DNA of 64,000 nt from Alkalispirochaeta sp. (lineage in GTDB: Bacteria > Spirochaetota > Spirochaetia > DSM-27196 > Alkalispirochaetaceae): positions 320,001 through 384,000 of the forward strand of contig OZ271854.1 in the NCBI GenBank assembly GCA_965601925.1, in the 5' to 3' direction. Made by a program: the position numbers and the translations under genes. This document shows, in pieces, positions 3,404 through 35,665 of the stretch; within the stretch, counting starts at the first letter, position 1; each line of letters starts with the position of its first letter. Under the pieces are notes generated by a model. The model had not been told where the DNA came from, made no database searches, and saw only the letters and a list, made by a program, of their open reading frames with translations.

Positions 3404-3553
3404 ATTGTTCGAGACGGCCGCACCTCGGCACGAAGGCGATTCGCACTATCTCGCATCGGATTGTTCTTGCTGGGGCGAGTTCAATTCTTGTATGATCGGA
3501 GCACGTGAAGGATCTACCCCATCCACGCCTACCGACTCGCATGAGCCCTATTC

Positions 3554-4810
3554 ATGGTTGAAATAACGATCGTCGTGATCTTACTGATCATCTCGGGCGC
3601 TTACTCCGGTACGGAGGTCGCCTTTACGTCGCTTACCGTCGATCAAATAGAGCGCATCAAGCGCAAATACGGGAAACGCGGCAAGCTCACCGCGCAACTC
3701 CACGATGAGCTTGATCTCGTTCTGACCTCAATCACCATCGGCAATAATCTCGCGAACCTGGCCGCCTCGGCACTCGTGTCGGCCTTTACCATTCGCATGT
3801 TCGGCGAAGCGTGGCTCATGGCGTCGACCGGCGTCCTGACGCTCCTGGTGCTCATCTTCGGCGAGGTCACGCCCAAGCAGATCGGCATTCTGCACAATGA
3901 GTACGTGACCGTACACCTCTCCCGGTTTTTGCGATTCTTCTCCTACCTATTTGCACCGCTCATCTGGTTGATTCGTCGGATCAGTAACGCCCTCACTCGT
4001 CTCACCGGGGGTAGAGCGCGCCCCAAAGTAACCGCGGAGGGCCTCCGACACTTAGCCCAGTATGCGGGTAGCACCGGCGTACTCAACAAAATGCACGCAT
4101 CCATCGTCAAAAACGTGATTCGCTCCCACGACGTTCGCGTCGAAGCGGTGATGACTCACCGAACGCGGATCGTGAGTCTGGATAAGCGCACGACGGCCCG
4201 TGAGGCCCTTCCGACGCTGTTGGAGTCGGGATTCTCGCGCGTTCCGGTCTATGACGGCGATCCTGAACGTATCGTCGGGATTGTATTGCTTCGCGATATC
4301 GCGCAAGCGGTGCTGGATCGGGAGCATACGGCTGATATTCCGCTCGCGCGGCTCATGGTCGGACCATTGTACGTGTCGGAGACGCGGACACTTCACCAGG
4401 TACTCACCCAGCTACAGCAGGAGCACATAAACATGGCCATCGTACTGGACGAGTACGGCGGACTCGCCGGGATAGTCACCAGAGAGGATCTGGTGGAGGA
4501 GTTCGTCGGAGAGCTCTACGATGAGAACGAGGACGAGAAGCAACAGCTTGTGGCTCGATTAAGCGACGGCGAGCTGCGTATCGCCGGAAACGCGGCGCTT
4601 CACGTCGTGAACGATCATCTCGACACCCAACTGCCCAACGTCGGTGAGGCGCAGACGCTCGGAGGCTACATCACCGAACAGATCGGTCGCATCCCGGCGG
4701 TACACGAGGAGCTCCACATACCTCAGGGGACCTTCACGATTACCGAAGTCAGCGGCAATAGGGTCGTAACGGTACGATTTCGTCGCGCGGCGGCGCCCGA
4801 GCAAGAGTAA
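3554..4810 (+). CDS. Hemolysin-family CNNM(DUF21)-CBS-CorC/HlyC membrane protein
   Basis: N-terminal TM region (SGTEVAF, IGNNLAN, GEVTPKQ), CBS pair (GFSRVPVY, DEYGGLAGIVT.EDL.EE.VGE), C-terminal CorC domain (TLGGYI). Confidence 0.9.
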   Translation: MVEITIVVILLIISGAYSGTEVAFTSLTVDQIERIKRKYGKRGKLTAQLHDELDLVLTSITIGNNLANLAASALVSAFTIRMFGEAWLMASTGVLTLLVLIFGEVTPKQIGILHNEYVTVHLSRFLRFFSYLFAPLIWLIRRISNALTRLTGGRARPKVTAEGLRHLAQYAGSTGVLNKMHASIVKNVIRSHDVRVEAVMTHRTRIVSLDKRTTAREALPTLLESGFSRVPVYDGDPERIVGIVLLRDIAQAVLDREHTADIPLARLMVGPLYVSETRTLHQVLTQLQQEHINMAIVLDEYGGLAGIVTREDLVEEFVGELYDENEDEKQQLVARLSDGELRIAGNAALHVVNDHLDTQLPNVGEAQTLGGYITEQIGRIPAVHEELHIPQGTFTITEVSGNRVVTVRFRRAAAPEQE

Positions 4811-29360: not shown

Positions 29361-30228
29361 GCGGCCTCCGCACCATATACCAGTGGGCGTGACCGTTTGA
29401 GGCGCGCCCGACGGTGACGATCTCCCAGAAGCGGACGGGAGTCGCCACGGCCTCCGACTCGGAGGGCTCGGCAATCGCGCGCCAATATCGTCTCACCTCG
29501 CCGCTACCCACCGCTATCGTCCAGTAAACGGAGCCCTCGGCGGCGACACCTTCGGCCAGCCCCTCAAGGGCGTCGTCGGAGTACCACGCCGCGGCCCTAT
29601 CGGATGGGAGGCGTATGACGACCTCCGGCCGCTCGCGGCGGGACACATCGTAACGCGTCATCGCTCCTGTCAGGAGCGCCTTGAGGAGGCGGTCGCCGTC
29701 CAGGCTCGACGGGTCGTCGACACACACACGACGTACCTCGTCTTCCAGACGCTTCATATGAACCAAGGCGGGATCCAAACCCCGCTCGGCCGCGTCGAGC
29801 AGGGTCTCTACGAGAGCGCCCAACTCGAGGGAGAGGTCGAGTCCGCGCGACGGATGTGCGGTCCACGCTCCGACGGGCTTCATATGTACGATTCCATCTT
29901 CGTTTGCGCCGTCCAGATACGGTTCCGCTCGCGCGGCGACTATCACAACATCCGCTCCGGAAAAGGCCGTTTCTAACGACAGTCGCCGTGACGATTCCGC
30001 CGCTCCGGGCCCAAGGATGAGACGACGCACCGAACGGCCGTCCCACCACCGCACGTTCCATCCGACTGCGAGCTCGCCGTAGTCCTCGCTTAGTGGAGGA
30101 ATGCGAACGTCGATATCGGCAGTACCGACGAACGGCGGCCTACACGAGGAGACTGCTCCCACGAACAATACCGCGACGACTCCCACCGCCGCATCGACGA
30201 TGGCTCGCCGCTCTTCCCGACTTCTCAT
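29341..30228 (-). CDS. Hypothetical lipoprotein
   Basis: Hydrophobic N-terminus ending AVSSC; converges on leuS with a 20-bp overlap. Confidence 0.55.
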
Positions 30229-30325
30229 GCTTCATATGACGGTGGTGAATCGTCATTGCGCCTTCTCAACCACGCAAACCGGTCATTCGCTTGCGGGAGA
30301 GAGCGCCATTTCGTATCATGACGAC

Positions 30326-31741
30326 ATGGCAGAATCGGAGCGTTTCGAGGAGCAGCTTGCGGAGCTTCTCGAAGCACAAGCCCAACAGATAGAATCCGAG
30401 GTCATCCCGGAGCTTAAGCAGCAATTCCGCCAAATGCGGTCCAGCTTCGAGGCGATCCACAATGTACTGAGGAAGAAGGCTCTCCTCAAAGAGGACCCGT
30501 ACAACTATGAGGAACGAATTTCGGAACTCGATACTCCGTCGGACGATCCCTATCTCGACAGCGAAAAAGATGTACAACTCAGCACGAGACTGTCGCAATA
30601 TCACTCGCGCATCGAATATCTGACCGACTACTACGACTGTTCGATTGAAAATCTCGATCTGGTACGCCTCAAGGCGCTGACGAAGTTCATAAAGTACCTC
30701 AACTGGAGGAATCTTTCGGAAACCGCGACCCAGCCGACGACGCGGGGACTCGCGGAACAGATCATGAAGATCAAGCGATCGAGCGACGCCCTGTCGGTCA
30801 ATATCGTGAACGACGCGCACGAACAGCTCAATCGCGCGTCGGTCAAAATCAACAAGGCATTGAAGAAGATCGCGCGCTACCAACGGGAGTCGTACAAACT
30901 CGCGGTACGCACGACGATTTTGACCGAACCGTCGATACCCGCCGCGCCGGCGCCTGCGGAGATGGACAAGACGGCGCGCAAAATAAAATCGGCTTTTCCG
31001 CGCCTCCTTCCCGGTCGTCCGTTTGCGAGGGAGCTCATTTTCGAGATCTTCAGCGAGAACGCCGCCGACGGTGGAGAAGCGGCGAGACAGAACCTGCTCC
31101 ACGACCTCGCCGTGGAACGGGCGCCGGCGGAGGAAAAGCAGGCCGGGGCCGACCTCAAACCGATACTGCTCGACGCGGCGAAGGCCGTAGCCTCGTGTAG
31201 TCGTCCCTTCGAGGAGGGGGCGCGGAAACTAAGCGATAATGCGCTGGTCGTCGAGAATCGCAAACTCACGTTCGGTGAAATGCTGCGACGTATTTGGGAA
31301 CACATGCGGGGAAGGGATCGCGAAAGCCACGTCTACACCGTCGACTACCTGGATCAATCGACGAATGCGCGCCGAAGCGAGGACATTCATTTCGAAGAGT
31401 TCATCAATCTCGTCTCCCGAAGGGCGCGGATCTATAACGGCATCTTACGCAAGACGGGTAACGCGTGGAACAAGCTTTACGGCTCGTCGGAGGATGTCAT
31501 TCTCAACTTCGTCACCAAGGATATCCAGGACGCGTACGAGATCGTACGGCGCTTTGAGTCGCTGGATACCTTTTTTCGCGCCGAGGTGACTCGCGAGCAG
31601 CGCGCCCAACTTCGCGGGATCAACGTGGAGCTGACGACGATCAAGGACAACCTCGTGCGAGCCCGTAAAAAGGCGCATCAGTACGTCGCCAAGTCCGAGG
31701 AGATCGCACAACTCAAGAAACTGGGCATCACCGGGACGTAG
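30326..31741 (+). CDS. Hypothetical alpha-helical cytoplasmic protein
   Basis: Long ORF; ATG 30326 lies 6 nt after TTGCGG-17-TATCAT; no family recognised. Confidence 0.7.
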   Translation: MAESERFEEQLAELLEAQAQQIESEVIPELKQQFRQMRSSFEAIHNVLRKKALLKEDPYNYEERISELDTPSDDPYLDSEKDVQLSTRLSQYHSRIEYLTDYYDCSIENLDLVRLKALTKFIKYLNWRNLSETATQPTTRGLAEQIMKIKRSSDALSVNIVNDAHEQLNRASVKINKALKKIARYQRESYKLAVRTTILTEPSIPAAPAPAEMDKTARKIKSAFPRLLPGRPFARELIFEIFSENAADGGEAARQNLLHDLAVERAPAEEKQAGADLKPILLDAAKAVASCSRPFEEGARKLSDNALVVENRKLTFGEMLRRIWEHMRGRDRESHVYTVDYLDQSTNARRSEDIHFEEFINLVSRRARIYNGILRKTGNAWNKLYGSSEDVILNFVTKDIQDAYEIVRRFESLDTFFRAEVTREQRAQLRGINVELTTIKDNLVRARKKAHQYVAKSEEIAQLKKLGITGT

Positions 31742-31857
31742 CGGGCACGGCTCCCTCAGTGCGTCGCCAAGTCGATCCGTCGTCGCTCGGCAAGGCGATA
31801 TGTCGTGAACACCTCGGCAAAGTGTCGCCGCAGAAGACCGTCCATCGTTCCGTCTGC
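31266..31857 (+). repeat. Direct duplication, left copy (3' part of the 30326 gene plus 3' tip of the convergent SBP gene)
   Basis: Near-identical to 35283-35665 by manual alignment. Confidence 0.92.
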
Positions 31858-32617
31858 GGTGCGGTGGCTCCTTGAGGTGGCGGTACATGTATCGCGTCAC
31901 CTATGTTTGCCTCGAAGAGGCGCACAATATCGTCACTGATATCGTTCGTGATTTGATGGTCGATGCCGGTAAATCCAATTCATCGTACATCTCTTGCGGG
32001 TTTATACTCGTTCGTCCTCATTGTACGTATCGCCGTCGGGAAGCGTATCATCGTCGTCTCATCGGGACTCGCCCTTTAATGACGATTCTATCTTCCGCGA
32101 GCAGCGTGTGCGCGTGTTCGATCATTGCAATGAGTTGTAGATCAATCCGTTCCGCGATACTTCCGGGGTAACTGCGAACGATTCTTCGACCGGCACTCGC
32201 GGCATGGCAAGAATGACGATCGTCGACAAATCCCGTATTGTCGGGTTACACCATAGCCGGCTCTCCTCACCCGGTTTGAGCGCCTTGCGAGATAAACAGA
32301 TGATACTCGAACCGGAACCCTATGGATGGTTGCCCCGCAACCTCAATGAACAGCGGTTGGTCCGTGGGAATCTCGCGTAGATTCAAGAGCTGTTCCGCGG
32401 TCTCTATCCGGACGATTCAACGTCTTAAGACGCGATTGGATATGCAACCGGCGAGGCGTACTGCCAAGACGGGACACGACAACGTTTATCGAAGTATTTT
32501 TTACAACGAGGCCCCCAAATTGATAATCCGTTTATTGCCTATCATGAGATTTTCCGATTGGTACCCGGAGTTCGATCAACGTCGATACGGTATCGGTGGC
32601 CTCTCTGTAAACAATAC

Positions 32618-32648
32618 TTGACAACTGGGCGTTCTCGTATGATCATAC
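32618..32648 (+). promoter_or_regulatory. Putative promoter of the peptide gene with an overlapping palindrome
   Basis: TTGACA at 32618; perfect palindrome GTATGATCATAC at 32637-32648 over the -10 region; AT-rich sequence follows. Confidence 0.5.
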
Positions 32649-32722
32649 CATCGATACGAAAAAGTTAAGGTATATACTAAAAATATTCGGTAATATCTAT
32701 GTATCAATGCAGGAGGTTTCAG

Positions 32723-32869
32723 ATGAAGTGGCAAGGTTACAATGAGAAAGCGGCCGAGCGGATGAATGGATTTGTCGTCAGGATTATAAACAGTCGATCG
32801 ATCCTCGTCCTGATCGCATTGGCGGCGATGGTGGTGGTCGCTGCGGCAACCAACAAGTGGGGCGGTTAA
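32723..32869 (+). CDS. Small 48-aa peptide, putative signalling-peptide precursor (MKWQGYNEKAAERMNGFVVRIINSRSILVLIALAAMVVVAAATNKWGG)
   Basis: AGGAGG RBS at 32711-32716, 6 nt before the ATG; hydrophobic core and short polar tail; below the ORF-track size cutoff. Confidence 0.75.
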   Translation: MKWQGYNEKAAERMNGFVVRIINSRSILVLIALAAMVVVAAATNKWGG

Positions 32870-33049
32870 TCATCCGATTCCGGATTCGTTAGTTCGTTCA
32901 CGACCAATAATCAATCTCGTTGCGTGATATACGTATCCCGTGGGTGTTGTTCGGCGTGTTTTTGGTGTTCGCTTAGCCCATAGGCGCAGGACCGTCGACC
33001 AGCCACCTCATTCTGTTCGTCGCGGAGGAATGCGTGTTATTATCCCGCA

Positions 33050-34333
33050 ATGAGCAGATGGGCGCGCATCTATATCGCCGCCGTGTGTTTCGGCAGCCTT
33101 GTAATACTCACTACCGGATCGATCGATCTCGATCTGAGACAAAATCTCGTGCCGATCATGCTTCTTACGGCGGCTTCGTTCCTCACTCAGGTTTACGAGC
33201 TTGAGATACTGCCCAAGTATCTATTCTCAACTCATATTGCGATAGCGACGACGGCGGCGTTCATCGGTGGAATGCCTCTTGCGATATGGGTCGTGGTTTT
33301 GTCCACGCTACCGGCGGAGATCCTCTTACGGTGGGACCATATCAATAGCAGCTTCGGCCGGTTTACCGCACCGGTCTTGTTCAACACCGGACAGGTGATC
33401 TTGAGCGTCGCCGCTGCAGCTACCGTTTTCGATGCGATGATCGATCTCATCCCGGCCGTAAATCATTCCTATTATGCGATGATTGCGTCCTTTCTGGCTT
33501 ACTTCTTCGCCAACAACTTCCTGGTTGCCGGTGTCATCGCATTGACCTCAGACGAACGATTTTTCAAGATCCTTCATTCCGGATTCAAGAATCTTTATTT
33601 GCAATTCCTCAACCTGGGAGTCTTGTCAATCCTTATGACTACCCTCTACAAGGTCTCTCCGGTAAACCTCGCGTTGGCCCTTGCTCCCCTCGCACTCGTA
33701 CACCACTCGACCCGCAACTACCTTCGGCTACGCCGTGAATCGCACCAAGCGTTCAAACGGATCACCGAGCTGTTGGCCGAACGGGATGAGTACACCGGTG
33801 CGCATTCCGACGAGGTGGAGGAGTTGGCGGTCAAGCTCGCGGGGGCGGCAGGGCTCACCGACGACGCGATCGAGGCTGTGCGAGCCGGCGCCGCCATTCA
33901 CGATATCGGTAAGATCGCGATACCCGACGCAATACTGAAAAAACAGGGTCCCCTCGATACTGAGGAGTTTGAGACGATGAAGCGACACACGATCATCGGC
34001 GCCGAAATCATCAAGGATCTCGATATCTACCGGAGCGTCGTGCCGATCGTTCGGCACGAACACGAACACTGGGACGGATCGGGCTATCCGGACGGGTTGG
34101 TTCGGGAGGCTATTCCGATCGGGGCGCGCATCGTCGCGGTTGCCGATGTGTACAGCGCGCTAAGGACCGAGCGAGCGTACCGACCTCCGCAAGGCAAACC
34201 GTTGAAGTACACACACAAAGAGGCGTGTCGCATACTGTCTGAGATGGCCGGAACGGTATTGGATCCACACTTCGTCGAGGTATTCCTTCGCGTCGTCGGT
34301 AACATGGTTCACGAAGAGACGGCGGGGGACTGA
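33050..34333 (+). CDS. Membrane-bound HD-GYP cyclic-dinucleotide phosphodiesterase with multi-TM sensor domain
   Basis: Several predicted TM helices in the first ~220 aa, then RDEYTGAHS, IHDIGK, HEHWDGSGYPDGL and ARIVAVAD. Confidence 0.9.
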   Translation: MSRWARIYIAAVCFGSLVILTTGSIDLDLRQNLVPIMLLTAASFLTQVYELEILPKYLFSTHIAIATTAAFIGGMPLAIWVVVLSTLPAEILLRWDHINSSFGRFTAPVLFNTGQVILSVAAAATVFDAMIDLIPAVNHSYYAMIASFLAYFFANNFLVAGVIALTSDERFFKILHSGFKNLYLQFLNLGVLSILMTTLYKVSPVNLALALAPLALVHHSTRNYLRLRRESHQAFKRITELLAERDEYTGAHSDEVEELAVKLAGAAGLTDDAIEAVRAGAAIHDIGKIAIPDAILKKQGPLDTEEFETMKRHTIIGAEIIKDLDIYRSVVPIVRHEHEHWDGSGYPDGLVREAIPIGARIVAVADVYSALRTERAYRPPQGKPLKYTHKEACRILSEMAGTVLDPHFVEVFLRVVGNMVHEETAGD

Positions 34334-34335
34334 TA

Positions 34336-34914
34336 GTGATCGCATTGTGGGGAATTGTTTTCGGGCTGTTGATCGGATTCATTCGCGGGGGAAAACTCAA
34401 TAATCTCGGAGCTACTCGGTTACGGGGACTCTCTATCGTCTTCGTGGCCCTTGCCGTTCAGCTCCTCATCTTCCCTACGCCGTGGTGGCCCGAACCACCG
34501 GTGTCGCGGGCGACGGGTGCATTGCACCTTGGTTCCTACGCTCTGATGGTGACGTTCCTCATATTGAACCGTCGGTATACTCCCTTCTGGGGTGTTGCCC
34601 TCGGTATGGCGATGAATCTTACCGTGATAGCGGTAAACGGCGGTTACATGCCCGCGGATTTAGACGCTTTGAGAGCCACCGGACAGTTGGGGACGGTTCG
34701 CAAGATTCTGGCGTCCGTCGATCAGACCTACGGTAACGTGGTCGCGATGAGCGAAGCGACGCGTTTGAATTTTCTCGGCGATTGGTTGGTGGTTCCCCCC
34801 TGGGTGCCATTTGCCGCGAGCTTCAGCCTGGGAGACGCAGTGTTGATGGTTAGCGCTGCTTGGCTCGTCCAAGCACTTATGTCTGATCGAGAACGACGGA
34901 ACGACGACGGTTGA
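34336..34914 (+). CDS. DUF5317 family membrane protein (LspA-like aspartyl peptidase by inference)
   Basis: G..RGG.L..L, Q, SY, N..VI..NGG.MP, L.FLGD and FS.GD motifs; starts 2 nt after the HD-GYP stop. Confidence 0.8.
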   Translation: MIALWGIVFGLLIGFIRGGKLNNLGATRLRGLSIVFVALAVQLLIFPTPWWPEPPVSRATGALHLGSYALMVTFLILNRRYTPFWGVALGMAMNLTVIAVNGGYMPADLDALRATGQLGTVRKILASVDQTYGNVVAMSEATRLNFLGDWLVVPPWVPFAASFSLGDAVLMVSAAWLVQALMSDRERRNDDG

Positions 34915-35282: not shown

Positions 35283-35665
35283 TCACGGTCGGTGATACGC
35301 CGCGACGTATTTGGAAACACATGCGGGGAAAGGATCGCGAAAGCCACGTCTACACCGTCGACTACCTGGATCAATCGACGAATGCGCGCCGAAGCGACTC
35401 GCGAGCAGCGAGCCCAACTTCGCGGGATCAACGTGGAGCTGACGACGATCAAGGACAACCTCGTGCGAGCCCGTAAAAAGGCGCATCAGTACGTCGCCAA
35501 GTCCGAGGAGATCGCACAACTCAAGAAACTGGGCATCACCGGGACGTAGCGGGCACGGCTCCCTTAGTGCGTCGCCAAGTCGATCCGTCGTCGCTCGGCA
35601 AGGCGATATGTCGTGAACACCTCGGCAAAGTGTCGCCGCAGAAGACGATCCATCGTTCCGTCCGC
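35283..35665 (+). repeat. Direct duplication, right copy (pseudogene fragment with a 209-bp internal deletion, plus the intact SBP 3' end)
   Basis: 35283-35397 matches 31266-31380 and 35398-35665 matches 31590-31857. Confidence 0.92.

Follow-up and report, generated by a model that had tools for sequence, protein, structure and literature searches.

A small-peptide, MASE9-like HD-GYP and DUF5317 gene triad points to an undescribed peptide-signalling circuit across many bacterial phyla

The window analysed here was a 64,000-nucleotide (nt) stretch of Alkalispirochaeta sp. (assembly GCA_965601925.1, contig OZ271854.1, positions 320,001 to 384,000), and the system in question was a triad of genes encoding a small peptide, a transmembrane (TM) HD-GYP protein and a DUF5317 membrane protein. 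The three genes were found on the + strand in that order, as a preliminary description of the locus had read them. The peptide precursor gene (32723..32869), which belongs to an unnamed family, encodes 48 amino acids (aa) and carries the ribosome-binding site (RBS) AGGAGG at 32711..32716 (+ strand), 6 nt before the ATG; similar sites precede most homologues. The second gene (33050..34333; 427 aa) encodes a MASE9-like multi-TM domain (residues 1 to about 228) fused to HD-GYP (HD_5, E 4e-33). The third (34336..34914; 192 aa; E 9e-27) encodes the DUF5317 protein, a candidate LspA-like aspartic peptidase, and its GTG start lies 2 nt past the HD-GYP stop. The unit was described earlier as compact, but 180 nt separate the peptide stop from the HD-GYP start. 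Each gene was single-copy, the host genome having yielded no other precursor, DUF5317 or MASE9-like gene. The closest homologues were in records named Spirochaetaceae or Spirochaetales, which makes a spirochaete host probable. Contigs from four runs of one sample showed zero differing letters over the stretch, and an assembly artefact was rejected.

A sigma70-type promoter-like site, TTGACA-17-GATCAT, was present at 32618..32646 (+ strand; 10/12 match). Six such sites were found against 2.4 expected, so this one is weak alone; its TTGACA was retained in two of three aligned spirochaete relatives (L005 and L018, not L083). The folding of the 180-nt spacer was modest (z -1.95), the terminator scan stayed at chance level, and Rfam matched nothing in the window and, across 18 related loci, nothing but TPP and tRNA. 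Between 33020 and 33050, the GGAGG nearest to the HD-GYP gene is better placed for a GTG at 33034, which is out of frame, than for the ATG at 33050, so the start site or the translation level of this gene is uncertain.

The small open reading frame (ORF) was found to be a genuine gene under selection. Loci were fetched around DUF5317 relatives, 80 from genomes and 80 from metagenomes (the best 80 of 514 and the best 80 of 550 confirmed candidates). In 121 of 162 loci a TM-HD-GYP gene stood directly upstream of DUF5317, which bears out the linkage proposed earlier; 40 loci had none there, 26 of them with less than 1.5 kb of upstream DNA, and one was unclassed. Comparable small ORFs might have been lacking at other DUF5317 loci. 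However, 71 of the 75 HD-GYP-DUF5317 loci with at least 500 nt ahead of the first HD-GYP gene had, at most 900 nt upstream, a short hydrophobic ORF with K/R-W at its end. Of the four remaining loci, one had a truncated tail; in the other three the peptide was N-masked, farther away or located downstream of DUF5317. The same motif rule matched 0/30 lspA loci, which at about 3.3 kb were shorter, and 1/76 loci on the opposite strand. Several precursor copies were present in 19 of the 71 peptide-bearing loci. Arrays of three to five tandem precursor genes, about 160–200 nt apart and identical or slightly diverged, were seen upstream of the HD-GYP gene in L019, L024, L042, L052, L102 and L105.

Many of the 162 loci came from related Bipolaricaulota; therefore 40 loci from two other phyla, chosen for strong DUF5317 hits and enough flank, were added. 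A like peptide was found beside the MASE9-like gene in 17/18 Bacillota and 11/15 Actinomycetota loci having such a gene, and in 0/7 of the added loci without one. For most of these peptides the family HMM or a less stringent rule was needed, and the strict K/R/T-W/F rule caught just 6 of the 17 from Bacillota. Across 102 related peptide pairs, which are not independent of each other, mismatches at codon positions 1, 2 and 3 numbered 880, 551 and 1767, and single-base changes were synonymous in 1166 cases versus non-synonymous in 439. A chance ORF was rejected on the conservation, the near-absence in controls and the synonymous bias. A profile search with the family returned 214 proteins at E<=1; among the 120 matches listed, none had a Pfam domain, and the named ones were hypothetical save for one stray label. 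Neither Pfam nor NCBIfam has a model for the family; the best E among 84 members was about 0.006, and such matches were scattered over unrelated families.

The window precursor contained an MKW start, a basic N-region, a hydrophobic core (residues 27–42) and an A42-x-x-K45-W46 tail. The hydrophobic core and short Trp tail that had been expected of relatives were indeed found across the family, which has a basic N-region and a core of about 15 residues followed by L/A-L/S-G-A-x-x-K-W-x(0–4); the small ORF thus has precursor anatomy. MKW opens 67 of 113 family peptides. The start of the window precursor, MKWQG (32723–32737), echoes its own KWGG tail. In a set of 111 peptides that was not selected for the Gly-Ala-x-x-Lys-Trp motif, Ala stood three residues ahead of Lys in 104 and was preceded by Gly in 84, and the two residues separating Ala and Lys varied widely. 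The lipobox is given as L-A/S-G/A-C in the accessible text of PMC9360617, and the precursor motif resembles a lipobox with Ala in place of Cys; Cys never occupied the +1 position among the 111 peptides. The Bacillota peptides read L-A-G-G-A, and a cut one residue earlier is therefore allowed. The motif favours a predicted cut before the invariant Ala, which with the LspA-like lead described below would give a mature tail ATNKWGG (32846..32866, + strand), or AATNKWGG with the earlier cut, over the TNKWGG first suggested.

TNKWGG would be the product if signal peptidase I (SPase I) freed the tail after the invariant Ala and DUF5317 degraded, modified or sensed the peptide. A cut of this kind is possible: SPase I follows the -3/-1 rule, which suits the invariant Ala and the small residue that often stands two positions ahead of it, and one relative, G851, keeps the peptide and receptor without DUF5317. 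However, at the would-be -3 position Leu was more frequent than any other residue (44/111), and the conserved Gly before the Ala is not needed by SPase I. Pro followed the Ala in 11/111 peptides, and Pro after the cut residue is said to block this enzyme, a rule for which we found no source. We regard this as the least probable of the explanations considered, with only a slight chance of being right.

The third gene product matched DUF5317 (PF17248) with 94.4 bits against a curated cut-off of 25. The invariant residues of the family were G90, N94, N101, P106, D149 (34780–34782), S164 and D167 (34834–34836). A core-fold search placed LspA on top, and the three-helix catalytic core superposed on LspA (5DIR, 6RYO, 6RYP) over 85–87 residues with an rmsd of 2.6–3.0. 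D149 and D167 aligned with the catalytic Asp pair of LspA, the significance of this alignment being weak, and G-x3-N on the preceding helix was common to both. Sequence support for the relationship was weak. DUF5317 gave no match to PF01252 at E<=1, HMM-to-genome searches linked DUF5317 and LspA in neither direction, and a profile without the 42-residue insertion scored no higher, whereas unrelated deletions scored higher. Whole-protein fold searches gave nothing clear, phmmer against the PDB was blank, and so was the Atlas search when DUF5317 was skipped. A housekeeping LspA identity was rejected. The protein was not filed in the LspA family since it lacks a PF01252 match, and is probably a remote relative; its LspA-like fold is supported but not settled.

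Fusions of DUF5317 to PAS-GAF-GGDEF, MFS, TPR and SPOR domains were found, and on a Euzebya plasmid DUF5317 opens an EAL protein beside MASE9-like genes and the peptide. The fusions imply that the output can be a cyclase, and DUF5317 may act as a sensor. Long fusions were seen at L044:1274-4057 and L047:1500-4322 and in proteins P0075, P0174, P0176, P0197, P0119, P0135 and P0204. The fusions to GGDEF and EAL output domains, together with the weak sequence support for the LspA link, suit a three-part membrane sensor without cleavage, in which the micro-protein would be a stable subunit and DUF5317 a co-receptor, a scaffold or an enzyme of other chemistry; small regulators of the membrane, MgrB among them, offer a precedent. 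We consider this sensor improbable, since both aspartates are invariant and were kept in all five fusions inspected, LspA topped the core-fold search, and the small-residue motif lies at a signal-peptide-like position.

The multi-TM HD-GYP protein scored 14.5 bits against MASE9 (PF20972), below the cut-off of 24.3, and is for this reason named MASE9-like. The Atlas top matches of its TM domain were MASE9 clusters, and 40 of 79 homologues matched PF20972 at E<=0.01. Conserved aromatic and Asn/Ser membrane residues, a trait of MASE9, were found in the receptor family: F111, N112 and N155 were kept in 76–77 of the 79 homologues and S60 in 66. In the HD-GYP domain, H252, H284, D285, H313, G345-Y346-P347, D366, R375 and Y377 were invariant in the 79 homologues and H338 was present in 78; this invariance of catalytic-motif residues suggests an active site. 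The motif is HHExh(D/N)GxGYP in the accessible text of Galperin and Chou (bioRxiv 10.1101/2021.11.05.467447). It is incomplete here, HHE reading EHE, and the first His was Glu in 54/79 homologues. In the same text MASE9 ligand binding is inferred to lie inside the membrane and the ligand is not named. The Streptomyces venezuelae HdgA is membrane-bound and its mutant has no developmental phenotype, for which the authors suggest missing activating signals (PMC6205966, accessible text).

Among 251 genomes of one phylum, which include incomplete genomes and kin that are not independent, DUF5317 and MASE9 occurred together in 70, DUF5317 alone in 16, MASE9 alone in 18 and neither in 147. DUF5317 was found in 86/251 and 101/251 genomes sampled from two large phyla; the latter tally includes nine unpublished genomes, two of which feed the invariance and spacing counts, and the conclusions are independent of them. 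Both DUF5317 and MASE9 were present in the genomes of Thermus thermophilus and Thermotoga maritima, which served as controls. The 18 DUF5317-free genomes yielded 20 MASE9 genes, of which 13 were GGDEF fusions, five HD-GYP and two neither. The peptide lay beside only two of the 20, one of which is 95 nt away from the end of a contig (two loci had less than 400 nt upstream). The peptide thus tracks the HD-GYP class linked to DUF5317 more closely than it tracks MASE9 in general, with the qualification that receptor class is confounded with the absence of DUF5317. The MASE9-GGDEF class (13/20, L313-L332) has no adjacent peptide or DUF5317, and its ligand may differ. In the host family DUF5317 was present in 4/21 other genomes; the triad was complete in three of these, with the receptor frame split in one of them, and in the fourth the contig ends before the peptide position. 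G851 (91% complete), named above, keeps peptide and receptor with no DUF5317 match (L305:5492-7082), a single event that is suggestive. In G851 and in G844 (L312:1186-1437), same-genus relatives without a DUF5317 match, the Gly-Ala motif was replaced by Thr-Ser, and the two may be listeners or carry a decaying system. A plasmid of Natranaerobius thermophilus (NZ_CP144220.1) retains the HD-GYP gene and an unannotated peptide gene (frame 3525–3647), its DUF5317 being broken up over three frames (L193:4959-5548).

The genes, their linkage, the invariant residues and selection acting on the peptide are shown. The proposed explanation is a circuit of precursor, LspA-like peptidase and cyclic di-GMP (c-di-GMP) receptor with a released pheromone, and we hold it somewhat better supported than its negation. 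The 48-aa precursor would be made from its strong RBS and inserted N-in/C-out like a signal peptide. DUF5317, a putative remote LspA relative with the beta-cradle swapped for a different outer insertion, would cut through D149/D167 at the lipobox-like site, Ala or Gly standing for the lipidated Cys, and a tail of 7–8 residues would be freed outside; the host being diderm, it would first gather in the periplasm. The tail would then bind the MASE9-like domain of the co-transcribed HD-GYP protein and alter its putative cyclic-dinucleotide phosphodiesterase activity. In this way the cell would sense density or confinement and respond through a second messenger. Here we infer the topology, the cleavage and its site, the binding, the enzyme activity and any action between cells.

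The main result against this circuit is that tail-receptor co-variation was weak, the hydrophobic core showing more co-variation with the TM domain than the tail. This fits a cell-autonomous proteolytic switch, in which the full-length micro-protein, acting to inhibit or activate, would bind the MASE9-like domain in the membrane and DUF5317 would clip it on cue, the tail being waste. The intramembrane ligand binding proposed for MASE9 and the N-terminal MKW kept in 67/113 peptides suit such a switch, as do the Actinomycetota loci, where the peptide adjoins the receptor and DUF5317 is often on the other strand. However, the Lys/Arg-Trp of the tail is conserved though it lies past the predicted cut, and the tandem precursor copies fit a bulk product. 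The switch is, in our judgement, unlikely, though the strongest of the alternatives. Co-folding of receptor residues 1–232, DUF5317 and precursor, each with an alignment, gave complex scores of 0.69, 0.75 and 0.69, with partner-swap controls at 0.00 and a receptor-replaced control at 0.75, and counts neither for nor against binding. The earlier reading of peptide, processing enzyme and receptor is thus partly supported, by the conserved triad, the precursor anatomy and the fold and residue lead to LspA that the comparison gave, with TNKWGG as the less favoured tail and an Agr likeness in architecture only. On a wider scale, an LspA paralogue may make linear Lys-Trp pheromones from Cys-less lipobox precursors, which would bind MASE9 and control c-di-GMP directly, with strain-specific pherotypes and possibly peptidase-less listener lineages; for such a widespread quorum-sensing family our expectation falls a little short of even.

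The surroundings of the triad bear on its local history. A 281-nt direct repeat was found, its left copy at 31577..31857 (+ strand), in the 3' end of the gene 30101–31741 (546 aa), and its right copy, internally deleted and 98% identical, at 35385..35665 (+ strand). The right copy is preceded by a 115-nt copy of 31266–31380 (35283..35397, + strand). The repeats flank the triad like an insertion or duplication scar. Repeat contigs stood at about double depth, and the duplication is therefore present in the DNA of that sample. The module genes had 53–57% G+C versus 60% for the genome, and DUF5317 was found in 2/301 genomes sampled from the host phylum. The module likely arrived by insertion after transfer or relocation. 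On the - strand, 31858–32550 holds a frameshifted and decayed version of a gene that is intact, with a 378-aa frame, at G000:C1:925854-926987.

In the searchable literature, outside which lie subscription journals and closed supplements, 'DUF5317' was not found and nothing described the triad. Three elements are new here: the lead to LspA that came from the core fold, the likening of the precursor motif to a lipobox, and the contrast drawn with MASE9 genes from genomes without DUF5317. The triad points to an undescribed peptide-signalling circuit across many bacterial phyla. If this is true, the orphan MASE9 sensor would have a ligand, DUF5317 would function as an LspA-fold enzyme not acting on lipoproteins, and there would be a peptide-signalling route with c-di-GMP output.

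The receptor resembles the MASE9-HD-GYP proteins T. maritima TM1467 and S. venezuelae HdgA in joining a multi-TM N-terminal domain to HD-GYP. It differs in falling under the PF20972 cut-off, and the accessible literature on those proteins names no ligand, peptide or DUF5317; the word 'peptide' occurs 0 times in the main text of Galperin and Chou (bioRxiv 10.1101/2021.11.05.467447). In the comparison of DUF5317 with LspA (PF01252), the three-helix core superposes, the Asp pair is in register and G-x3-N recurs. Unlike LspA, DUF5317 has an extra N-terminal helix, about 40 inserted residues ahead of the first Asp and a short loop in place of the beta-cradle, and its putative substrate has no lipidated Cys.

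Agr quorum sensing consists of AgrB, AgrD and AgrC. The analogy drawn in the preliminary description stands for the architecture only, a precursor, a dedicated membrane maturase and a membrane receptor being encoded together. No component matched an Agr model: for AgrB only DUF5317 was returned in Pfam and nothing in NCBIfam, AgrD was absent among 84 peptides, and no histidine kinase was found; membership was rejected. The system also departs from Agr in a window peptide that lacks Cys, a predicted product that is a linear tail from the C-terminus, an HD-GYP receptor and an output that would be a cyclic dinucleotide. The pheromones cCF10 and cAD1 of Enterococcus are cut from real lipoprotein signal peptides by housekeeping enzymes. 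The Listeria pPplA is likewise a signal-peptide-derived pheromone (PMC4379056, accessible text). The circuit proposed here would share with these a short pheromone from a signal-peptide-type precursor; it would differ in its dedicated precursor, in a product taken from the C-terminal side and in using a membrane enzyme as receptor.
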